A stretch of 64,000 nucleotides of DNA, taken from IMG/VR virus record IMGVR_UViG_3300046474_000237, positions 7,469 through 71,468 of that record; one strand, written 5' to 3'. Below the pieces are notes generated by a model that was not told where the DNA came from, did not search any database, and saw only the letters and a list, made by a program, of their open reading frames with translations. Below are positions 3,102-59,784 of this stretch, piece by piece. This DNA is from a virus (taxonomy: Duplodnaviria; Heunggongvirae; Uroviricota; Caudoviricetes). The position numbers and the translations under genes are program-made. Position 1 is the first letter of the stretch. Every line of letters starts with the position of its first letter.

Positions 3102-4355
3102 ATGGCGAAGATCTCAGATCTTCCACTGAACGAGTTGTATGAGAGAAAGATTACAACGTCTGTAGAAGTGGCAATCCATAGCAAGGAAGACTTTAGCAAG
3201 ATCAGTAAGACGTATTGCGACAAAGTCTGTAAGCTCAAATGTAAATCGTATGATGCTGTTCGCCTTGCTCAAAACGAAGTTGATATTCTGATTATCCAGG
3301 ATCACGCGGCACCCGCTGGGAAGTGGGATAGAGTAGAGGGTCAGCAAGAAAAGATCCAGCAGGATATCATTCACCATCTCTGTAAACAAGCAGGGTTTGG
3401 AACGTTGAAGTACCGATTGGTGAACTTGCTTAAATGTAGTCCGACAGAAGAAGACTTTCCAAAAGGGAAAGCACCAACTGCAACACGGCTAATGAAATGT
3501 AAACCTTATCTTTTAGCTGAGATAGATCGTTGTAAACCAAAGGTCATCATCAGTCTGGCAACAGTTGTGACTAAAGCGTTGGGTTATAAGAAACACAGCA
3601 ATACTGGTAATCGTGGTGAGTATGTTGATAACGTAGTTATCACAATCCATCCAAGAGCATTGACGATGATTCGTCAGAACGCCTCTGGAGCCTTCTGGGG
3701 ACAAGAGTTGTATGGTGTGATTCTCCGAGACTTCAAGAAGGCCGCAGCAATGGCTCGTGGTCATCTTAAACCGCCTACGTTAGCTGAAGCGATTGAGTTT
3801 TATAAACAGAACCGTATTCGCATTGCACGAAGCATTGAAGAAGTAAAAGAGTTCATGGCTATCATTGATGGTTTGCCAGCAAACTCAATCATCAGTCTAG
3901 ATACTGAAACGACCAGCTTAGACGGGCTGGCTGAAAATGCCAAACTGCTTTGTATTCAGTTCGGGTATCGAGATCCAATTGACAAAGAAGTTAAAGCATT
4001 GGTAGTTCCACTGTGGCATCGTGAGAACAAGATGTATAGTGGAGACGAAGCATGGGCTTTGGTTACTCCTTTCTTAGAAGGGCCAAGACCGAAGGTAGGG
4101 CACAACATTAAGTTCGATATCTTGTACATTTGGCACACTACCAAAGTACGGGTGAAAAATATGGCTTTTGATACTTTGCTTGTTCTTCATAGTCTTGATA
4201 GTGGTGCGCAGGGTACTTATAGTTTGAAAACTGCAGTCTGGGATATTGTTCCTTGGACTGGATTAGGTGGTTATGAAGACCTCCTACCTAAACTAACTAA
4301 GAATGCCGCCGAAGAAACTGAAGAAACTGAAGAAGATGAGGTAGAAAGTGATTAA
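3102..4355 (+). CDS. DNA polymerase I-type, N-terminal part: family-4 UDG-like domain plus 3'-5' exonuclease domain
   Basis: UDG4-like block (DILIIQDHAAPAGKWDRVEGQ...KCKPYLLAEIDRCKPKVIISLA). ExoI SLDTETTSLD and ExoII GHNIKFD motifs. Confidence 0.65.
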   Translation: MAKISDLPLNELYERKITTSVEVAIHSKEDFSKISKTYCDKVCKLKCKSYDAVRLAQNEVDILIIQDHAAPAGKWDRVEGQQEKIQQDIIHHLCKQAGFGTLKYRLVNLLKCSPTEEDFPKGKAPTATRLMKCKPYLLAEIDRCKPKVIISLATVVTKALGYKKHSNTGNRGEYVDNVVITIHPRALTMIRQNASGAFWGQELYGVILRDFKKAAAMARGHLKPPTLAEAIEFYKQNRIRIARSIEEVKEFMAIIDGLPANSIISLDTETTSLDGLAENAKLLCIQFGYRDPIDKEVKALVVPLWHRENKMYSGDEAWALVTPFLEGPRPKVGHNIKFDILYIWHTTKVRVKNMAFDTLLVLHSLDSGAQGTYSLKTAVWDIVPWTGLGGYEDLLPKLTKNAAEETEETEEDEVESD

Positions 4356-43563: not shown

Positions 43564-44700
43564 ATGTCACACAGTAAACTGTATCATGAAGCAGCACAAA
43601 TGTACGCTGCAACTTTCGGTAGTAAAAAACTCGCAGTAGACACAGAAGAAAAGCAGTATGACCTGGCAGTTGTAATGGGTCGATTTGAACCGCTCCACGC
43701 AGGGCATCAGATTCTCCTCAACAAGGCGTTGATGGTAGCTGATAGGGTGCTGGTTCTTATCGGATCTTCGAATGCGCCACGTACTATCAAGAACCCGTTC
43801 ACTTATGAAGAACGTGCTCAAATGGTAGTCCAGTCGGTCGGTACTTCAGAAGTAATGACGGCTCCGCTCGTTGACAATCCTTACTCAGATGATGAGTGGG
43901 TTAAGCAAGTTCAGGACGAAATCAAGTCTGCTCTTATCGCAGGCCATTCTTGGTCTGATAAAGATGTTCCACGCAAAGTCGCAATCGTCGGTAACAAGAA
44001 AGATGAAAGTTCGTATTACCTGGATTTGTTTCCGCAGTATGAATATGTATCTGTCGATGAAGTAAAGCTTGGTTTCGACGCTACGACCATTCGGGAAGTA
44101 ATCTTTGAGAGGCCCGGTTTCATCGAGCTTCTCAAGAGCTTAGTACCGGAGTATACTTTTAGCTTCATCAGGGAATTCATCAAGACCTCGGAGTATCTCC
44201 GTCTGGTACGTGAATACAAGATGGTGCAGAAGTATAAAGATTCCTGGAAGGCAGCTCCGTATGCGCCTACGTTTGTGACGGTCGATGCAATTTGCAAGAA
44301 GGCTGGACACGTCCTCATGGTTAGGCGTAAGGCTGCTCCTGGAGAGGGACTCTGGGCATTGCCAGGTGGGTTCCTAGAACAAAAAGAGAGACTTACAGAT
44401 GGTGCGATCCGTGAACTACAAGAGGAAACTTCGTTGGACCTCCCAAGAGGTTTACTTAGCGGTAGTATGTCTACCGGTGTTGTTTTTGATCATCCTGGGC
44501 GTAGCTTGCGCGGTAGAACTATTACGCATGCTTTTCTCTTTGATCTGGACCGTGCGGACAAAAAGCCAGGCCTTCCTAGAGTCAAAGGCGCGGATGACGC
44601 AGTAGAAGCAAAATGGATTCCCATTGCGGAACTCCTTAAGATGTCAGACCAGATCTTTGAAGATCATCTGAGCATTATCCGTACAGTACTTGGTGTATAA
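43564..44700 (+). CDS. nadM: bifunctional NMN adenylyltransferase / Nudix hydrolase (NadM-Nudix)
   Basis: HxGH motif VVMGRFEPLHAGH at the N-terminus. Nudix box GGFLEQKERLTDGAIRELQEETSL at the C-terminus. Confidence 0.7.
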   Translation: MSHSKLYHEAAQMYAATFGSKKLAVDTEEKQYDLAVVMGRFEPLHAGHQILLNKALMVADRVLVLIGSSNAPRTIKNPFTYEERAQMVVQSVGTSEVMTAPLVDNPYSDDEWVKQVQDEIKSALIAGHSWSDKDVPRKVAIVGNKKDESSYYLDLFPQYEYVSVDEVKLGFDATTIREVIFERPGFIELLKSLVPEYTFSFIREFIKTSEYLRLVREYKMVQKYKDSWKAAPYAPTFVTVDAICKKAGHVLMVRRKAAPGEGLWALPGGFLEQKERLTDGAIRELQEETSLDLPRGLLSGSMSTGVVFDHPGRSLRGRTITHAFLFDLDRADKKPGLPRVKGADDAVEAKWIPIAELLKMSDQIFEDHLSIIRTVLGV

Positions 44701-44752
44701 ACAAGTCCCGGAGAAAGACTCTGGGCATTTCTTAATTAACGAGGCGTTAATC

Positions 44753-46150
44753 ATGTCACAATTCAAAATCAATCCCCTTCTAAACGCAGACTCATATAAG
44801 CACAGCCACTTCCTTCAATACCCGGAAGGTGCTACTGCATTGTCTTCCTACGTCGAAGCACGTAAGGACAATAGCGGTTTCGGCATTACTCATGTAACTC
44901 CGTTTGGTCTTCAAGGCTATATCAAGGATCATCTGCTTACTCCGATCACTGCTAAAGATGTAGCTCAAGCGGCTGCGGTTTGCAAGGTTCATGGTGAGCC
45001 TTTTGCAGAAGATGCATTCCGTAAGGTAGTAGAAGTATATGGTGGTCTTGCACCTATCACTATTCGGGCTGTTGAAGAAGGCCGTCAAGTTCCGATTGGC
45101 AATGCGCTGATCGATGTCGAATGTCACGACAAAGACATGCTGTGGATGGGATCTTTCTATGAAACACAAATCCTTCGTGCGGCTTGGTACGGCACTACGG
45201 TTGCAACTGTTAGCCGCCACTGTAAAGAAATTATTTTCAAGGGACTTGTTGATACTTGTGACAAGCCACTTGATGAACTTCCTTTTAAGCTGCACGATTT
45301 CGGCGCTCGGGGTGCTAGTTCTGCTGAAACTTCTGCTATTGCTGGCGCCGCGCACTTAGTAAATTTCATGGGCACGGACACTATGCTTGGCATGGAGTAC
45401 GCTAACCAATTCTACGGAGCTGACTATGCCAATCTTGGCTTTAGTATTCCTGCTGCTGAGCATAGTACTATTACTAGCTGGGGCCGTAACGGAGAAGCAC
45501 AAGCGTACCGCAACATGGCTGAGAAGTTTGGCAATGGTCTCTTCGCTGTCGTATCTGATAGTTATGATATTTTTAACGCCGTAAAGAATGTATGGGGCGG
45601 TGAACTGCGTGATTTTGTCCTCGCTTTGCCTGGCACTCTCGTTGTTAGACCTGACTCCGGCGATCCGGTATCGGTTGTTAGGACTGTTGTGGGGATTCTC
45701 GCAGACAAGTTCGGATACACGACAAACGGTAAGGGATTCAAAGTCCTGAACAAGGTTCGAGTCATTCAAGGTGACGGTGTGAATCCTACTTCCATTCAAG
45801 CCATCCTCACGGCTCTTAAAATGGATGGTTTCAGTGCTGAGAACGTTGCATTCGGTATGGGTGGTGCCTTGCATCAAAAAATCGATAGGGATACATTTTC
45901 GTTTGCAATGAAGGCCTCAGCTATAGAAATCGATGGTAAGTGGAATGATGTGTACAAGGATCCGATTGCTGGTGGAAAGACTAGCAAACGCGGTCGTCTG
46001 GCACTGGTAGAAGACGAGAAGGGTGAACTGACTACGATTCGTCGTGAAAATGCAATGGGTCGTGACGATCATCTCGAAGTAGTGTACACTGGTGGTAAGC
46101 TTATCAAGGAACTGACATTCAACGAAGTACGTAGGAACGCTGCAATCTAA
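44753..46150 (+). CDS. nadV: nicotinamide phosphoribosyltransferase
   Basis: MSQFKINPLLNADSYKHSH N-terminus typical of NadV/Nampt. RBS gagg. The six-frame ORF starts at 44690. Confidence 0.7.
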   Translation: MSQFKINPLLNADSYKHSHFLQYPEGATALSSYVEARKDNSGFGITHVTPFGLQGYIKDHLLTPITAKDVAQAAAVCKVHGEPFAEDAFRKVVEVYGGLAPITIRAVEEGRQVPIGNALIDVECHDKDMLWMGSFYETQILRAAWYGTTVATVSRHCKEIIFKGLVDTCDKPLDELPFKLHDFGARGASSAETSAIAGAAHLVNFMGTDTMLGMEYANQFYGADYANLGFSIPAAEHSTITSWGRNGEAQAYRNMAEKFGNGLFAVVSDSYDIFNAVKNVWGGELRDFVLALPGTLVVRPDSGDPVSVVRTVVGILADKFGYTTNGKGFKVLNKVRVIQGDGVNPTSIQAILTALKMDGFSAENVAFGMGGALHQKIDRDTFSFAMKASAIEIDGKWNDVYKDPIAGGKTSKRGRLALVEDEKGELTTIRRENAMGRDDHLEVVYTGGKLIKELTFNEVRRNAAI

Positions 46151-54070: not shown

Positions 54071-54390
54071 GTACACAAGATTTTGACAAGATTGAACCCA
54101 CGCTAGTAGAAGACTCAAAGAAAATAGTAGAGCTTCTCAATAGCCCGGCTCCTAAAACCAAATACAAGAGTTTCATCTATCGCCCTAACCACGATGGGGC
54201 AAAGCTTTCGATGGGAGTTCACTCAGCTCCGGCGACAGTTCCATTTCCTAAATCGACTTTCGAAGGCGTAGATTTCTATCGCGTCGAAGGTAAACTGTGG
54301 CAACTCAGTAATGTAGGTTCTGACGATCTCGGTATCTTCGTTGAGTTTTATCGTGTAGAAGGTGAGTTCAAGGGGTACACATATGGCTAA
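54067..54390 (+). CDS. hypothetical protein
   Basis: 107-aa ORF. Confidence 0.45.
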   Translation: MSTQDFDKIEPTLVEDSKKIVELLNSPAPKTKYKSFIYRPNHDGAKLSMGVHSAPATVPFPKSTFEGVDFYRVEGKLWQLSNVGSDDLGIFVEFYRVEGEFKGYTYG

Positions 54391-54820
54391 ATCTAATGAA
54401 ACACTGTACGCACACCTACAACAGGTGCGGACTGAAGCTCTTAAACTGAAGGATTCTTTTTCGTTTACTAAGCTTGGCACCGTACTTGGTGAAGCCAAGC
54501 AATTGGCTACTAAGAAAGAGAACCGTGATCCTACCGATGAAGAAGTTATCGGCATTGTCAAGAAGGGTCTTGAAGGTATTGCAGAAATGCTTGAGCATGA
54601 GAAGGATAATCTTAAGCGTGGCACTCTACTTGCTGAACGTCAGCTTCTTCAAACCTTTATGCCTACTCAACTGTCAGAGACTGAAATCAAGGTAATCATT
54701 GAGAATGCTGCGATGGATAGCATTGGTAAGATCATGGCTATCTTCAAAAACAATTTCGCAGGGAAATATGATGGCAAACTCGTCTCTAAACTCGCTGAAG
54801 AGTTCCTTAGCTCAAAGTGA
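54383..54820 (+). CDS. YqeY/GatB C-terminal domain protein
   Basis: LSETEIKVIIENAAMDSIGKIMAIFKNNFAGKYDGKLVSKLAEEFL matches the YqeY/GatB domain signature. RBS aagggg. The six-frame ORF starts at 54362. Confidence 0.55.
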   Translation: MAKSNETLYAHLQQVRTEALKLKDSFSFTKLGTVLGEAKQLATKKENRDPTDEEVIGIVKKGLEGIAEMLEHEKDNLKRGTLLAERQLLQTFMPTQLSETEIKVIIENAAMDSIGKIMAIFKNNFAGKYDGKLVSKLAEEFLSSK

Positions 54821-55529
54821 AGCTCCGGATCTCGATGTAAACAAGGTTCGTTTACTGTTCCTTGATGTGGACGGAGTAATAAATAGTACCAAGACATGGC
54901 TACTAGCGGGATGTAAGTGGCCGTGGCCTTTGTATGACACTGATGGCTGTCAACTGTATTTCGGGGGAGGTCCTCGTAATAAAACGCTTAAAGCTCCGTA
55001 TGTGGAAACACCTGAAGCTATTGATAAGTATGCAGTTGGACTTCTCAACAAACTTCTCATTGCTACTAATGCACACATCGTATTGTCTTCGACTTGGCGT
55101 GAAGGGCTAGACATCTACGATATTCGTAAGATGTTAGGTGCAATGGGCTTTGATGAAAACCGTGTGATCGGTAAGACTGCCAGTACGTTTAACTCTCGTG
55201 GGGAGCAGATCTTCAACTTCATTCAAGCAGTTGGAGAAAAACGTTTCTACAGCGGACCAGACTTCTTGGTTTCAAATGGACGTCTGATCCAGTCACTGAG
55301 TAAAGTTCCAATGAAACTTGACTCTTATGTGATCATCGATGACATAGATGATTTCCTGCAAGATCAAGGTGCTTTTTTCGTTCAGACCAACGAACAAGAA
55401 GGACTTACGCTTGAACAGACTTTGGTTGCAGGAAAGGTTTTGACTAAGAAAGAAGACTTTGAGTTGAATCACCTTATTCATGGTGAGAATTACCAAGGGC
55501 GTATTTTGCATCTCCCTGAAATTCAATAA
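54768..55529 (+). CDS. HAD-superfamily hydrolase
   Basis: LLFLDVDGVINS (DxDGV) and VLSSTWRE. Start uncertain: ATG at 54768 or 54771; the six-frame ORF uses a TTG at 54699. Confidence 0.45.
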   Translation: MMANSSLNSLKSSLAQSEAPDLDVNKVRLLFLDVDGVINSTKTWLLAGCKWPWPLYDTDGCQLYFGGGPRNKTLKAPYVETPEAIDKYAVGLLNKLLIATNAHIVLSSTWREGLDIYDIRKMLGAMGFDENRVIGKTASTFNSRGEQIFNFIQAVGEKRFYSGPDFLVSNGRLIQSLSKVPMKLDSYVIIDDIDDFLQDQGAFFVQTNEQEGLTLEQTLVAGKVLTKKEDFELNHLIHGENYQGRILHLPEIQ

Positions 55530-55890: not shown

Positions 55891-55984
55891 GAAAAAGAAT
55901 AAATCGCTTCTAGCAATATTCGTGGGGCGTGAACGCCACGCTCCTTTCTGTTTTTTATCTCGGGAACAACAGAGGGCGATTCAA

Positions 55985-56155
55985 ATGTTTAATGAAATCA
56001 TTAGCGTTGTAGAGTACAACGAAGGCTTCGCTCTAATCGAAGACAATCAGGGTAAGTACCTGGTGACAAAAGAAAGTCCCGAAATCACAGAACTAGAATT
56101 TCCTCGGTGTTGGTTGACCGATGCGAATCGTGATAGACTTTCAATGTTGACTTAA
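55985..56155 (+). CDS. hypothetical protein
   Basis: Start uncertain (55922 or 55985). Confidence 0.35.
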   Translation: MFNEIISVVEYNEGFALIEDNQGKYLVTKESPEITELEFPRCWLTDANRDRLSMLT

Positions 56156-56771
56156 GCTTTGCGTGGTGGCGAGTAGAGCGTTTCTCCTTCCCTGGACTAA
56201 GCAACCCGGGGTTCTCTGCAGAATTGCTTAACCCCTTCTGGGGCATGATGAAGTATAATGTAACGACAACGTTACTAGAAGTAATGAAACATTCTTCGAA
56301 GTTGTCTTCGCCTACGGCGAACCCCAGGGACCGAGATGCTCTGGGGTACGACATCCCAGCTCGAACTTATACTTAACTATATTGAAGAGCTGCAGGTCTC
56401 GTGACATCAATACCGCATGAGTTCATCATGAACACGGCCTTCGGGTCGCACAGAGTTTGAAGTATCAAACTGGTTTAAAATTTGCCGCCTAGGTTGATAG
56501 CCAGGGAGGGTAATCAAGGCCAGAGAGTATCTGAAACAGTGCTCTACGTTGCTCTTGCCAAAAGCAAAAGCAAAATCTTTACCCAGCTGGGGCTGGGTAA
56601 AACTAATTCTGAGCTTAGATGTTACCGACGGGTCTCATCCTAACTTAGGTTAATTAGTATTAACCAGGTTGGTTCTGCACAGAATGTGTTCAAGCTACGA
56701 GAGCCGCCGAACTGGATTATCGGCCAAAAATCTTCCAGTTCAATATTCGCTTTCAATAATTTAGAAGTTAA

Positions 56772-56780
56772 TGGTATAAT
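56772..56780 (+). promoter_or_regulatory. promoter -10 TGGTATAAT upstream of the tRNA-like repeat array
   Basis: Variant of the conserved motif, 10 nt before the first repeat unit. Confidence 0.45.
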
Positions 56781-56789
56781 AGATTTAGT

Positions 56790-57610
56790 GAGCCGTTCTT
56801 ATGTTGGGTTATCAATTGGTGATTACTCCCCGGCATTACTCTTTTGCTCACTCACGCTTTAATCCTCGTATTGATTCTAAAGAGTCAGTACCTGATTTAA
56901 AGTTTATGGACCGATAGAATGGGTTATCTAACTCCAAGACGCAAATACAGGTTCGAGTCCTGTACTCCGCTTCTGTTGCGGAGTTCATCTAATTGGCAGG
57001 ATGGCGACTCCTGATTCCATTCGATTACTTGTCCATCCCTCTTTCACGGGCCGTTAGAATATCGATTATCTATCTTACAGGCAAACTCGATATTCACTTC
57101 TTTGCCCGTTTCAAGTTTCAAACGAACCGAACGTACTAAGGGTTATCTACTTCGACTAGTTAGAACGAAAGCATTACGTAGTTTCTGGAAACAGAATAGT
57201 GCCTGAGTCTAATACTGCTATACTCTGCTTGAGCTAAAGCTATTGTGGGATGAACTCCCATATCTCCCTTGTCAATCACTTGTTCGTTTTTTCAGTTTGT
57301 GAGCCGTTTAGAATTGGGTTATCCTTTTAAGATACTCCCCCAGTTCATTTCTTTTGCTCACTTCAATTTTACGGACCGTTAGTATTAGGTTATCTACTTT
57401 TGGGAAGTCGGGACGTTGGTTCGAATCCAACTGCAGCCTTGAGGGTTGTATAGCTTAGTGGATAGAGCACGTAACATTTCCTAGTACGCCTTTTGTCCGT
57501 TTCAGTTTTAAATACAGAGCCGCTTTAATTAGATTATCTTCTCCTATATCGAAGGACTGCCCAGAGGGGGCTCTCGAAAGAGACGGGTTCGACTCCCAGT
57601 CTAAACATCT
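56790..57610 (+). ncRNA. array of seven tRNA-like repeat units (candidate Y-RNA-like ncRNAs) upstream of rsr
   Basis: Units start at 56790, 56908, 57048, 57123, 57301, 57373 and 57517, each with a box like GRRCCGTTAGAATnGGTTATCT. Units 1-3 are pairwise homologous to units 5-7, suggesting a block duplication. Units 2 and 6 carry a T-arm (ggttcgagtcc / ggttcgaatcc) followed by a hairpin and a D-arm-like agcttagtggatagagc, without a complete cloverleaf. Confidence 0.45.
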
Positions 57611-58011
57611 AGTTATACCTTTGTTCTGTTTCCCATGACCTTTCGTATTTTGCTTTGAAGTTTGAAAGTAACCATAGAGTAACTCTGTGGGTTTATCTTT
57701 CTCCGACGTACGTTGCGTACTACAAGGTTCCGCTGCGCTACACCATGTACTACTCCACTCCCTTCGGAGATCTGGCCAGGAGACATCCCAGCCATGAGGT
57801 CAGGTCATGACCGCAGTACTCGCATTAGACTTACGTATCAAAGCAGTTTAGATTGCTGGCTTAGAGTAACTCTAAGTTATAGCTTTCCGCCCAGTGTCGG
57901 CTTCGCCTCTACTGGAGCGGAGATGATGAAGGAGGATCTGCTTCACCAGGGCCCTGGGTAACCAGGATCCCAGTTCACCTCCAACATCGCATGTGGTAAG
58001 TTAGCAGTACA

Positions 58012-58051
58012 CGAAGGCCTGTTTCCAACCCGGATTCAGGCCTTCTTTTTT
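58012..58051 (+). terminator. rho-independent terminator
   Basis: gaaggcctg...caggccttc followed by ttttttt. Confidence 0.6.
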
Positions 58052-58093
58052 TAGTGTTTTAAAACTTTGTTCCCAATCCAAAAGGAGCCTCAA

Positions 58094-59725
58094 ATGTCTT
58101 TCAATACCCTCGCAAAGAATACGAATACCCGAGTAGCAGCACGTACCACACCGCAGAACAAGCCTGCTGGCAATGCACCTGTAGCACAGGTTAAGAACAA
58201 CGCTGGTGGCTTTGTGTTTGAGATCTCTGGCATTCAAAAGCTGGATCGATTCCTCATCATCGGCACGAGCGGCGGTACGTTCTATGCTAACGAAAAGGAT
58301 CTCACGAAGCAGAACACTGACGAGATCGTGGCTCTGATCAAGGCTAACGGCAAGGTTGTGGTTGACCGTGTGGTTGAGATCAGCCAAGCCGGTCGTGCCA
58401 AGAACAATGACTATGCGCTTCTGGTCATGGCTCTGGTCTTCACCCACGGCGATGTTGCAACCAAGATGTATGCAAAGGATAAGTTGAACCTCGTGGCTCG
58501 TACTGGCACGCACTTCATGCACTTCGTTGCATTCTCAAATGGGATGCGAGGTTGGGGCCGTTCGCTTAAGAGCGTAGTTCAGAACTGGTATTCCTCGAAG
58601 GATACCGATAAGCTGGCATTCCAGATCGTGAAGTACAAGCAACGTGACGGCTGGTCCCACAAGGACATCATGCGTCTGGCTCACGTTAAGCCTGGTACTG
58701 ATCCGGTTCGTCAGAACCTGTACAAGTTCATCAACAAGGGTTCAGAGTCGCTGACGCAAGGTGACCTCGTGCCTCAACTTCTGATTGCTGCAGAGCAAGC
58801 CAAGACTGCAGATACGAAGACGTTGATCAAGCTGATCCAGGATTTCAAGCTCACGCACGAAATGATCCCGAATGAGCAAAAGAATGACCCGAAGGTTTGG
58901 GAAGCTCTCGTGCCTCACATGGGTCTGGGTGCGCTGGTTCGTAACCTGAACAAGCTCACGGCAGTTGGTCTGATCAAGCCTTTCTCGGAAACGAGCAAGA
59001 TTGTCAGTGTCAAGCTTCATGACGTAGAAGCAATTCGTCGTGAACGCCTACATCCTATGTCCATTATCGTAGCCCAAAAGGTTTACGCAAAGGGTCAGGG
59101 GGATAAGGGTTCGCTTGTATGGTCACCTGCACGCAACATCGTGTCGGATCTGGAAGATGCGTTCTATGTTTCGTTTGAAGCAGTAGAACCGTCCGGTAAG
59201 AACATTCTTCTTGCTCTGGACGTATCTGGTTCGATGAGCTGTGCAATCCCCGGAGCGCCACTGTTGAGCTGTGCTGAAGGCACTGCAATCATGGCAATGG
59301 TCACAGCTCGTACTGAGCCTTGGACCGAAATCCGTGGTTTCACGAGCGGTAGGAATGGCTTCAAGGATCTGGGTATCACGAAGAACGATACCTTGGCTAC
59401 AGCTTGCAGCAAGGTCCGCGACAATAACTTCGGTGGAACGAACTGTGCACTGCCGTTCGAGTATGCGCTTCAAAACAAGTGGGACGTGGATGCTGTCTGT
59501 GTTTACACGGATAATGAAACGTGGTCTGGTGGCCAACACGTGTTCCAAGCAGCACGCAAGTACCGTCAAGGTATGAACAAGCCTGAAGCTAAGCTTATCA
59601 CTGTTGGTATGGCAGTGAACAACTTCAGCATTGCTGACCCGACTGACCGCAATATGCTGGACGTGGTTGGTTTCGATACGGCAACTCCGAGGTTCATTTC
59701 GGAATTTGTGGCTGGCAACCTGTAA
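58094..59725 (+). CDS. rsr: Ro60/Rsr orthologue (TROVE domain plus vWA domain)
   Basis: LDRFLIIGTSGGTFYA and VARTGTHFMHFVAFSNGMRGWGRSLKSVVQNWY closely parallel the Ro60 TROVE motifs. C-terminal vWA MIDAS motif LALDVSGSMS. RBS aaaggag. The six-frame ORF starts at 58067. Confidence 0.8.
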   Translation: MSFNTLAKNTNTRVAARTTPQNKPAGNAPVAQVKNNAGGFVFEISGIQKLDRFLIIGTSGGTFYANEKDLTKQNTDEIVALIKANGKVVVDRVVEISQAGRAKNNDYALLVMALVFTHGDVATKMYAKDKLNLVARTGTHFMHFVAFSNGMRGWGRSLKSVVQNWYSSKDTDKLAFQIVKYKQRDGWSHKDIMRLAHVKPGTDPVRQNLYKFINKGSESLTQGDLVPQLLIAAEQAKTADTKTLIKLIQDFKLTHEMIPNEQKNDPKVWEALVPHMGLGALVRNLNKLTAVGLIKPFSETSKIVSVKLHDVEAIRRERLHPMSIIVAQKVYAKGQGDKGSLVWSPARNIVSDLEDAFYVSFEAVEPSGKNILLALDVSGSMSCAIPGAPLLSCAEGTAIMAMVTARTEPWTEIRGFTSGRNGFKDLGITKNDTLATACSKVRDNNFGGTNCALPFEYALQNKWDVDAVCVYTDNETWSGGQHVFQAARKYRQGMNKPEAKLITVGMAVNNFSIADPTDRNMLDVVGFDTATPRFISEFVAGNL

Positions 59726-59748
59726 GTTGTAAGGTTGTAGTAAGTAAG

Positions 59749-59775
59749 AGCCGGGTTTCGATCCGGCTTTTTTTA
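59749..59775 (+). terminator. rho-independent terminator
   Basis: agccggg tttcgat ccggct followed by ttttttt. Confidence 0.65.
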
Positions 59776-59784
59776 GCTTCTGGA

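Follow-up and report, generated by a model that had tools for sequence, protein, structure and literature searches.

What does a phage encode in nearly two kilobases of DNA that stand directly in front of rsr, the gene for the Ro60 protein Rsr, and contain no evident gene? The locus that raises this question lies in a 64 kb stretch (44% G+C) of a large uncultured phage, called here the window. The region examined is the 1.9 kb found 5' of rsr (56156-58093). Open reading frames (ORFs) called mechanically in this region do not exceed 82 amino acids (aa) and none of them keeps its position or strand in related contigs, which bears out the original prediction, made from the letters of the window, that the 1.9 kb is devoid of ORFs. 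The 82-aa ORF at 57713-57961 was rejected as coding, its only counterpart being in a 93%-identical relative while the other loci lack it.

The segment 56698-57629 codes eight structured RNA units with the architecture of Y RNAs, which covary, are specific to one strand, are linked to rsr and are conserved. The reading preferred here, with a probability of about 0.78, is that this array is a polycistronic Y-RNA operon whose RNAs would bind the phage Rsr and probably connect it with different partners. A cluster of Y-RNA-like genes beside a phage rsr, some of them resembling the tRNA-like Y RNA YrlA, had been proposed before; the helix formed by the unit ends, the matches to YrlA and the conservation in relatives of an array on the rsr strand are all in agreement with it. 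That proposal extended the array over the whole 1.9 kb, which is correct for 56698-57629 only, the remainder being other conserved structured RNA. It also counted seven units that start with a conserved box. The box is real and marks units 1-7, and an eighth unit (unit 0) is found upstream of the promoter-like motif TGGTATAAT, at 56698-56755. All units are on the + strand, as rsr, 0.46-1.4 kb upstream of that gene. They are listed below with the evidence for each, where MFE stands for minimum free energy and R1 for a covariance model built from the short units (nt, nucleotides; bp, base pairs).

56698-56755, + strand: unit 0, 58 nt, short loop (fold, model R1)
56787-56852, + strand: unit 1, 66 nt, short loop UUAUCAAUUGGUGAUUACUC (MFE fold z=-3.4; R1 69.4 bits)
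56905-57037, + strand: unit 2, 133 nt, tRNA mimic (fold, RNAalifold)
57045-57110, + strand: unit 3, 66 nt, short loop, upper stem of 9 bp (fold z=-3.4; R1 59.2 bits)
57121-57288, + strand: unit 4, 168 nt, Ro-type stems around a 116-nt multi-hairpin module without T-arm (fold)
57298-57362, + strand: unit 5, 65 nt, short loop UUAUCCUUUUAAGAUACUCC (fold z=-4.2; R1 77.9 bits)
57370-57501, + strand: unit 6, 132 nt, YrlA-type tRNA mimic (Rfam, RNAalifold)
57514-57629, + strand: unit 7, 116 nt, a T-arm-like hairpin preceded by three small hairpins, an order unlike that of YrlA (closing and upper stems predicted)

Each of the eight units, when folded alone, has the same frame. From 5' to 3' it reads nn-GRRC, C G N2-7, the 5' strand of an upper stem, UUAUC, a variable module, a Y-rich stretch, the 3' strand of the upper stem, N4-10 and GYYC-nn. 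The ends pair in a closing stem of 6-7 bp (nnGRRC/GYYCnn) that is followed by an unpaired C in the 5' strand, a G opposite U and an asymmetric internal loop. The upper stem has 6-9 bp and its 5' strand usually ends in GG(G/A), while the N4-10 stretch that precedes GYYC is U-rich and ends in UU. UUAUC comes directly after the upper stem in all eight units and opens the loop. In unit 0, for example, the closing stem is GAGAGC/GCUUUC and the upper stem GAACUGGA/UCCAGUUC, then comes UUAUC; this unit scores 47.9 bits with R1 (E ~1e-10). An end-pairing stem with an internal loop, beyond which a large or variable loop is found, is one of the traits of a Y RNA, and it is present in the MFE folds of 8/8 units. 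So is a helix of the unit termini with a conserved bulge, which strongly covaries and which the original prediction had demanded of Rsr-binding RNAs.

At the sequence level, GRRCCG occurs in 8/8 units of the window and UUGYYC in 7/8; the exact GGNCCGA is found in unit 2 only. The combined motif GRRCCG-N6-18-TTATC is present eight times in the 64 kb, always on the + strand and between 56701 and 57517, and is absent from the - strand. Chance would give 1.0 on average over the two strands combined, and the highest count in 200 first-order Markov simulations was 3. The boxes are irregularly spaced, at 72-177 nt.

The same putative operon is found in five further distinct contigs, L001 (with the near-identical L002 and L006), L003, L004, L007 and L016, whose Rsr proteins are 72-93% identical to that of the window and which have 7-9 units each. 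These IMG/VR relatives are contigs of 107-181 kb and form a clade with the window. Orthologues of unit 0 are present in all clade loci. The order of units differs among relatives: the short and tRNA-like units 2 and 3 are swapped in L003, and L001, L003 and L004 have an extra tRNA-like unit that the window lacks. UUAUC is near-invariant in 40 clade units, with the variants UUACC, UUAAC and UUCUC.

Comparison within the clade shows that it is the pairing that is kept. In a natural MAFFT alignment of 16 short units, 94.3% of the cells are paired, against 29-51% when the 3' partner is slid, and 8/12 pairs have compensatory changes on both sides; MAFFT placed some 3' strands out of register, so pairing is slightly understated. 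A structure-anchored alignment of the cores of 40 units from five phage contigs (546 cells) is 95.2% paired, against 42-47% when slid, and features 132 both-side changes against 39±6 in shuffles, none of 500 shuffles reaching 132. In the 40 units the closing stem is paired almost without exception, and a single position can show as many as four Watson-Crick types; position 3, for example, is UA in 18 units, CG in 14 and AU in 8. The pair G9·U39, the G·U that follows the unpaired C, is found in 36/39 distinct core sequences. It is because of the G·U pairs that the structure is strand-specific.

The tRNA-like units lead to the same result by an independent route, since RNAalifold recovers their closing stem, upper stem and T-arm, and also the D-arm in the larger alignment. 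Unit 6 and its homologues (7-sequence natural alignment) share 23 pairs, 14 of them with compensatory changes; the five orthologues of unit 2 share 30 pairs, 8 of which have such changes. Model R1 detects the four short units of the window at E ~1e-10 to 5e-18, the next best hit on both strands of 55-60 kb having E=0.23. With filters off, R1 did not reach the long units, whose inserted modules are too long for it; these units were assessed by their structure-anchored cores and by natural alignments of orthologues.

Beyond UUAUC the units diverge. The variable modules are four short loops, two YrlA-type tRNA mimics, one other T-arm and one module of 116 nt. The short units 0, 1, 3 and 5 have 58-66 nt and a loop of just 17-21 nt. 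Unit 2 has a T-arm (ACAGG-UUCGAGU-CCUGU), a 7-bp acceptor-like hairpin and a D-arm-like hairpin, and unit 6 has the same order of T-arm (loop UUCGAAU), 7-bp acceptor-like hairpin and D-arm; the D-loops of both contain GG. The canonical T-arms first noticed in these two units are therefore present, each followed by the 7-bp hairpin and the D-arm. The 116-nt module of unit 4 is conserved in the orthologues of L001, L003, L004 and L007 and has no tRNA feature. The T-arm of unit 7 is clean in its orthologues of L003 (3443-3551) and L007 (3241-3351). Describing the whole array as tRNA-like repeats is accurate for the 3/8 units with a T-arm, most units being short and not tRNA-like.

A duplication of a block of three units had also been suggested. 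Units 1 and 5 (56787 and 57298) are clear paralogues with 82% identity. The other pairs are at background: 56905/57370 share 67% and 57045/57514 59%, within the 59-76% of most other unit pairs, which does not sustain a duplicated block and leaves of the pairwise homology between units 1-3 and 5-7 only that first pair.

The Rfam comparison that had been proposed as a check gives matches to YrlA in unit 6 and in the tRNA-like units of relatives, all of them sub-gathering. Unit 6 (57387-57502) scores 30.1 bits (E=6e-4) against a gathering score of 69, the homologous units of relatives 32-45 bits, and the L007 orthologue of unit 2 32.1 bits; the best scores among relatives are 44.9 and 49.1 bits. 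YrlA is the only model with a match between 55.9 and 58.15 kb; the nematode sbRNA model RF01656, GOLLD, ROOL, tmRNA and ribozymes have none at E<=10.

Are such arrays peculiar to this phage clade? An Rsr alignment led to a survey of 76 further IMG/VR phage loci and 80 loci of bacterial genomes, with Rsr ~38-47% identical, using the box G[AG]NCCG-N4-18-TTA[TC]C. The phage loci have 162 matches on the rsr strand and 26 on the opposite one; 25 loci have at least three units in 1.5 kb, 16 at least four, and the maximum is 7. The bacterial loci have 212 matches on the rsr strand and 15 on the opposite one, with 35 loci of at least three units in 1.5 kb, 18 of at least four, and a maximum of 9 in a Chloroflexia metagenome-assembled genome. 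As a less circular check, 5-mers were counted downstream of all GRNCCG sites in the loci outside the clade. On the rsr strand of phage loci, and not on the other strand, TTATC, GGTTA and GTTAT rank highest; in bacterial loci GC-rich 5-mers come first, GGTTA is third and TTATC is absent from the six listed. Sample folds of surveyed loci have this frame too; their modules are short, tRNA-like (in both orientations) or of other kinds, and the arrays are found upstream or downstream of rsr.

Bacterial arrays of GRNCCG...UUAUC units, up to nine beside rsr (L092-L171; e.g. L108 1417-2786, L120, L122, L125), are seen in Chloroflexota, Rhodospirillales (Alphaproteobacteria), Anaerolineae, Verrucomicrobiota and Polyangia, and Nocardia loci typically have 2-3 units.

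Judged from these sequences, multi-unit arrays are a general feature of rsr loci, the window being at the upper end. An array of six or seven units beside a phage rsr had been called unusual. Arrays of 3 to 9 units are common beside rsr, which takes away from that claim; what stands of it is that none was found described in the literature searched (the 2020 Annual Review on bacterial Ro60 and Y RNAs is outside that literature and might mention them or the UUAUC element). In the literature searched, no bacterium or phage is reported with more than two Y RNAs, apart from up to four small RNAs mapped near the Deinococcus rsr. That Y-RNA genes are found beside rsr is known; the scale of the arrays, the paralogue classes and the UUAUC shared with animals are not described there.

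One array belongs to a cultured phage, Microbacterium phage A3Wally (MZ150783, L015). Five units are present at ~104014-104600, with a terminator at the end of the array, and a further unit at ~106822 just before the Ro gene; the box match at ~102221 is less clearly a unit, as its MFE fold lacks the standard closing stem. The units are not annotated, and what is annotated as gene 192 ("hypothetical protein", 104169-104297) covers two of them and is unlikely to be a real gene. The sequence GTGTGCTAC(G/C)ATAGA occurs in two copies, one before the array and one before the single unit, and looks like a phage promoter.

The A3Wally Rsr is ~40% identical to that of the window, and the Rsr of the IMG/VR locus L033 ~45%. 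The loop type of unit 1 is found again in both phages and that of unit 5 is conserved in L033. The loop UUAUC(UC)AAUUGGUGA recurs in the window (56809), A3Wally and L033 and is related to the loop of unit 1 in L003. Recurrence of the loops of units 1 and 5 at this distance argues for conserved paralogue classes, and that these loop types are kept in phages with Rsr only ~40-45% identical points to partner-specific functions.

The array is embedded in a longer set of elements on the same strand, which leads to rsr:

56158-56696, + strand: region Z, a structured non-coding RNA of ~540 nt with two domains, 56161-56451 and 56455-56695 (conserved blocks, RNAalifold)
56752-56780, + strand: promoter-like site read from the sequence, with the extended -10 TGGTATAAT at 56772-56780 and a weak -35, TTCAAT, at 56752-56757
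56856-56903, + strand: long conserved hairpin after unit 1, ~20 bp
57633-57825, + strand: module X1, structured RNA of ~190 nt (alignment, alifold)
57828-58004, + strand: module X2, paralogue of X1 (alignment, alifold)
58013-58052, + strand: terminator-like GC hairpin with a U7 run, between the RNA operon and rsr (inverted repeat)
58081-58087, + strand: ribosome binding site AAAGGAG of rsr
58094-59725, + strand: rsr, Ro60 orthologue of 543 aa (Pfam, phmmer)
59746-59779, + strand: intrinsic-terminator-like hairpin 3' of rsr (terminator scan: 11-bp stem, then a T run)

The identification of the ORF 58094-59725 as a Ro60/Rsr orthologue is well founded. Its product features the Pfam domains TROVE (2e-34) and vWA_Ro60 (4e-55) and is matched in phmmer searches by D. 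radiodurans Rsr (2NVO, 1e-111), X. laevis Ro60 (1YVP, 1e-97) and human RO60 (9NEN, 4e-96). It retains the residues aligned to X. laevis K170, R174 and H187, which we take to be Y-RNA-binding and cavity residues. The closest Rsr matches in deposited phage genomes are 39-43% identical, and Ro60 of Thermus phage phiLo is very distant (3e-7).

A promoter at 56772 had been proposed. The motif TGGTATAAT is indeed there and is invariant in 5/5 aligned loci, with varying flanks; a generic promoter scan omitted the site, whose -35 is weak. The predicted transcription start, ~56787, coincides with the first base of unit 1. A TATAAT at 56254-56259 was rejected as an alternative upstream promoter, as it is not conserved in relatives. 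Unit 0 is 5' of the promoter-like site and its 3' strand overlaps the -35 position. Following unit 1, the hairpin 56856-56903 is predicted in the window, L001, L003, L004 and L007, with a conserved outer stem (GCUUUAAU/AUUAAAGU) and a covarying inner stem whose sequence differs while pairing is kept. It may be a processing or attenuation element (an RNase III-type site or an attenuator) that sets unit 1 apart from the remaining transcript. The units are separated by spacers of 7-12 nt; the spacer motif YCA(R)(G)UUU, found in 23/40, might be a processing signal.

On both sides of the array there is further structured RNA. Region Z has conserved blocks in five loci and RNAalifold gives ~20 helices, many with compensatory changes; its long-range pairings include 56244-56252/56422-56430 and 56455-56461/56689-56695, which close the two domains. 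The stable hairpins first noticed in 56160-56770 are present and are part of this conserved structure. X1 has a terminal stem ACCUUUC/GAAAGGU and the conserved hairpin AUAGAGUAACUCUGU, and X2 a terminal stem ACUUAC/GUAAGU and the hairpin UAGAGUAACUCUA. In both modules the terminal stem adjoins CGUAU...AUGAGG, and each carries a variable hairpin and the near-invariant hairpin AUAGAGUAACUCUAU. A nhmmer profile of X1 cross-matches X2 and otherwise finds the window clade only. Region Z, X1 and X2 have no Rfam match at E<=10, and nhmmer profiles and motif regular expressions found nothing convincing for them in ~155 other rsr loci outside the clade. As probable parts of one transcription unit with the Y array and rsr, X1 and X2 are candidates for further Rsr-associated RNAs. 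L004 and L016 have, at 3124-3570, an AT-rich ORF of 148 aa between the last Y-like unit and X1; its match to HNH is weak (20.6 bits against a cutoff of 21.4) and it is probably a homing endonuclease.

Every clade locus retains the hairpin 58013-58052. The distance from it to the ATG of rsr is just ~20 nt in L003 and L007, which leaves no room for a promoter of its own, so rsr is probably reached by read-through of the hairpin; a promoter scan found no separate rsr promoter.

How would such an operon work? We infer transcription from TGGTATAAT, cleavage in the spacers, read-through into rsr, binding to Rsr and adaptor roles of the modules. The DNA between 56.7 and 58.05 kb would be a non-coding RNA operon serving the phage Rsr. 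Transcription from the extended -10 promoter would start at base 1 of unit 1, unit 0 and region Z depending on a start further upstream, and the transcript would pass through seven tandem units, X1 and X2 to the leaky terminator hairpin before rsr. The precursor would then be cut in the short A/U-rich spacers (YCA(R)(G)UUU) to yield individual RNAs of 58-168 nt. Each RNA may close through its 5' and 3' ends to form a Ro60-binding module, whose stem would load onto the outer surface of the Rsr ring as in animal and bacterial Y RNAs. The modules beyond UUAUC are most likely adaptor ends that would tether Rsr to partners, possibly PNPase, other exoribonucleases or tRNA-recognising enzymes, or gate its cavity. 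This adaptor role is suggested by analogy with the Rsr-Y RNA-PNPase machine of Deinococcus and Salmonella and the Ro60-Yrl-PNPase complex of phiLo. The infected cell would thus hold a set of specialised Rsr ribonucleoproteins (RNPs) for RNA degradation, quality control or repair.

Several observations weigh against a Y-RNA operon. All YrlA matches are far below the gathering score, unit 2 had no YrlA match at all in the search of the window, and the vertebrate Y_RNA model (RF00019) has no match at E<=10 in 55900-58150. The YrlA 5' motif GNCGAAN0-1G is found in 0/8 units of the window, 2/40 clade units and 3/6 tested A3Wally units. By score and by this motif, the units were rejected as curated members of YrlA, Y_RNA or sbRNA. 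Characterised Y RNAs have 80-130 nt, a range within or near which units 2, 6 and 7 (133, 132 and 116 nt) are found, and outside of which are units 0, 1, 3 and 5 (58-66 nt) and unit 4 (168 nt). The fold of unit 7 is no more stable than those of shuffles (z=+0.39), and unit 0 is upstream of the sole recognisable promoter. Processing of the precursor by an RNase E-type activity is a guess. The 40-unit core alignment was built by picking the best-pairing 3' strand and so leans to structure.

Alternative readings of the locus differ in how much of this evidence they can accommodate. An improbable one, though the most plausible of them, is a cis-acting structured leader: Rsr would bind Ro-type stems in its own mRNA and control termination at 58013-58052 or the stability or translation of the mRNA, with no free small RNAs being made. 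That the array, X1/X2 and rsr share one strand would fit this, as would the gap of ~20 nt between hairpin and start codon in L003 and L007, by which the RNAs and rsr are probably co-transcribed, and the failure to find a separate rsr promoter. A leader function cannot be general, however, because arrays elsewhere are downstream of rsr (L038, L087) or apart from it (in A3Wally an endolysin gene stands between them). Autoregulation moreover needs neither eight diversified modules nor tRNA mimics kept by covariation, and the bacterial Y RNAs characterised so far are cut out of precursors of this kind (PMC4201824). Control in cis is compatible with a Y-RNA operon and the two are not exclusive.

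Less probable still is that the units are tRNA-derived decoys or relics independent of Rsr, i.e. degenerate tRNAs or sponges for host tRNA-targeting nucleases or modifying enzymes, placed beside rsr by accident. The phage has 21 tRNA genes and RNA-repair-type neighbours (HAD_SAK_2, YqeY), and three units have T-arms, two of them together with D-arms and the GG and UUCGA loop signatures. Yet 5/8 units have no tRNA-like part and share the same stem, unpaired C and UUAUC core, in 156 other loci this core shows a strong same-strand linkage to rsr, and covariation indicates selection on stems that are not those of a tRNA. ARAGORN and the Rfam tRNA model make no tRNA call in the array, nor anywhere from 40.2 kb to the end of the window. 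It is very improbable that the boxes are protein sites at the DNA level, such as origin iterons or an operator array, with incidental RNA folds. Eight spaced copies of a ~22 bp box in 0.9 kb of non-coding DNA could suggest so, but pairing is kept via G·U pairs, which are A·C mismatches on the other strand, compensatory changes are in sequence outside the box, R1 finds nothing significant on the minus strand, and the boxes are irregularly spaced and always follow the orientation of rsr. All three readings have less support than a Y-RNA operon.

Read as a Y-RNA operon, the locus touches on why several Y RNAs are found in one organism and on the role of the variable half of Y RNAs. It brings together one predicted promoter, eight diversified Y-like RNAs and one Rsr in a compact system, and the same kind of array in the cultured phage A3Wally makes the idea testable at the bench. 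Arrays beside rsr are unannotated in deposited genomes. The UUAUC of phage and bacterial arrays also bears on the homology of bacterial and animal Y RNAs, which one review considers not homologous (PMC4726728). A bolder, tentative proposal combines three claims and as a whole is rather doubtful: the core would be homologous to that of animal Y RNAs and sbRNAs, arrays would be libraries of up to 8-9 Y-RNA adaptors with one partner each, and Z, X1 and X2 would be new classes of Rsr-associated RNA. If homology of the core were true, Y RNAs would have moved together with Ro60 among animals, bacteria and phages, and UUAUC, whose one role known to date is in the initiation of DNA replication, would be an ancient part of the Ro60 RNP.

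No close cultured relative of the phage itself is seen: neither blastn with 56160-58100 nor megablast with 40-64 kb matched any deposited phage at the nucleotide level, and among phage matches to its DHH protein none exceeds 33% identity. Genes near rsr code a helix-turn-helix protein, a protein with the HAD_SAK_2 "Swiss-army-knife RNA repair" phosphatase domain, a YqeY/GatB-like protein, a dCMP deaminase and a DHH phosphoesterase; further upstream of the RNA operon are genes for NAMPT, an NMNAT-Nudix protein, ThyX and a Band-7 protein. Upstream of the operon and on its strand, the YqeY/GatB-like gene overlaps that of HAD_SAK_2 (54362-55529), and NMNAT-Nudix and NAMPT are found together (43564-46150). 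The latter two constitute NAD+ salvage, a known counter-defence theme. The 21 tRNA genes of the window are at 19-40 kb, and at gathering thresholds Rfam finds only 16 tRNAs in the window, all outside the RNA array. The tRNA at 27076-27151 has the top tRNA score of the window (69.3 bits), the anticodon CUA and the ARAGORN label tRNA-Pyl; it is of amber-suppressor type, which makes reassignment or suppression of stop codons conceivable in this phage.

How do the units compare with known Y RNAs? They are on the same strand as rsr and within 4 kb of it, which is the criterion of Chen et al. 2014. In topology the core resembles animal Y RNAs and nematode stem-bulge RNAs (sbRNAs): a lower stem with 5' GGNCCG(A) and 3' UUGNCC, the unpaired C, an asymmetric internal loop, an upper stem ending GGG/CCC and a loop that begins with UUAUC. 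The metazoan Ro60 site proper is a helix of 5' GGUCCGA and 3' UUGACC with one bulged C, which the units approach to different degrees. In nematode sbRNAs and vertebrate Y RNAs, UUAUC has been named as a conserved motif, and their replication-initiation activity requires it (PMC4450293, PMC4726728); GGUCCGA is the strand contacted by Xenopus Ro60 (Chen et al., PMC4201824). The closest match of the array to the vertebrate Ro site is unit 2, with 5' GGACCGA and 3' UUGUCC. Human Y4 has GGUCCGAUGGUAGUGGGUUAUC (start GGCUGGUCCGAUGGUAGUGGGUUAUCAG) where unit 2 has GGACCGAUAGAAUGGGUUAUC (start AUGGACCGAUAGAAUGGGUUAUCUAA). Mouse Y1 (PMC6060611) and unit 1 of L003 (2478-2543) have the 13-mer GUUAUCUCAAUUG in common at the start of the loop. 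The probability of this by chance, over ~1,600 comparisons of units with Y RNAs, is roughly estimated at a few per cent, so that the identity is suggestive only and may reflect chance or deep conservation.

The nematode sbRNA family RF01656 of Rfam, whose consensus is ..GGUCCGGaGucgaUGGGUUAUC...UUCCCAucgaCACCAACUUGACC..., can be aligned over its full length to short units at two other phage rsr loci, L087 (31.1 bits) and that of Gordonia phage Cashline (31.8 bits). Its matches on phage Y-like RNAs have 24-32 bits (Cashline, L011 2828-2955; L087 6105-6256) against a gathering score of 38, and the alignments span GGNCCG...GGGUUAYC (UUAUC; UUACC in the better match)...CCCA...AACUUGNCC. In Cashline the RF01656 match overlaps a YrlA match. 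Unlike in animal Y RNAs, no Pol III signals or 3' oligo-U/La site apply to the window units, and some of these have tRNA-like modules, which animal Y RNAs lack. The shared core is closer to animal Y RNAs and nematode sbRNAs than to the Rfam YrlA model, a likeness compatible with both homology and convergence.

YrlA (RF02553), found in Salmonella, M. smegmatis and mycobacteriophages, is likewise adjacent to rsr on the same strand and has paired 5' and 3' ends. Units 2 and 6 alone share with it the T-arm, the acceptor-like hairpin (7 bp as in M. smegmatis YrlA) and the D-arm. In Salmonella and M. smegmatis YrlA only the 5' strand of the Ro helix is recognisable, while the Deinococcus RNAs keep both (PMC4201824); both are recognisable in the window units, whose UUAUC is not in the Rfam YrlA consensus. 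The three characterised bacteria have at least two Y RNAs each, one of them tRNA-like, and YrlA and YrlB of M. smegmatis are processed from one precursor upstream of rsr (PMC4201824). The second Y RNA beside rsr, YrlB in Salmonella and M. smegmatis and Yrn2 in D. radiodurans, is not of the YrlA type and is co-processed from one precursor with the tRNA-like one; the short units can be likened to it. The complement of the M. smegmatis YrlB probe contains UAUCUGG, which is consistent with UUAUC, the first U being outside the probe. The window differs in having four short units of 58-66 nt with distinct, separately conserved loops; Rfam offers no YrlB model for comparison.

D. radiodurans Yrn1, which tethers Rsr to PNPase (PMC4201824), keeps both strands of the Ro helix and contains a T-arm. 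Unit 7, with hairpins before its T-arm, is nearer in arrangement to Yrn1 as described than to YrlA. Deinococcus has two Y RNAs and other small RNAs rather than an array of eight units. Ro60 of phage phiLo binds Yrl1 and Yrl2, coded just upstream, and forms a ternary complex with the host PNPase (PMC12135203). Like phiLo, the window phage encodes Y-like RNAs 5' of its own Ro60 gene, phiLo with two of them and the window with eight.

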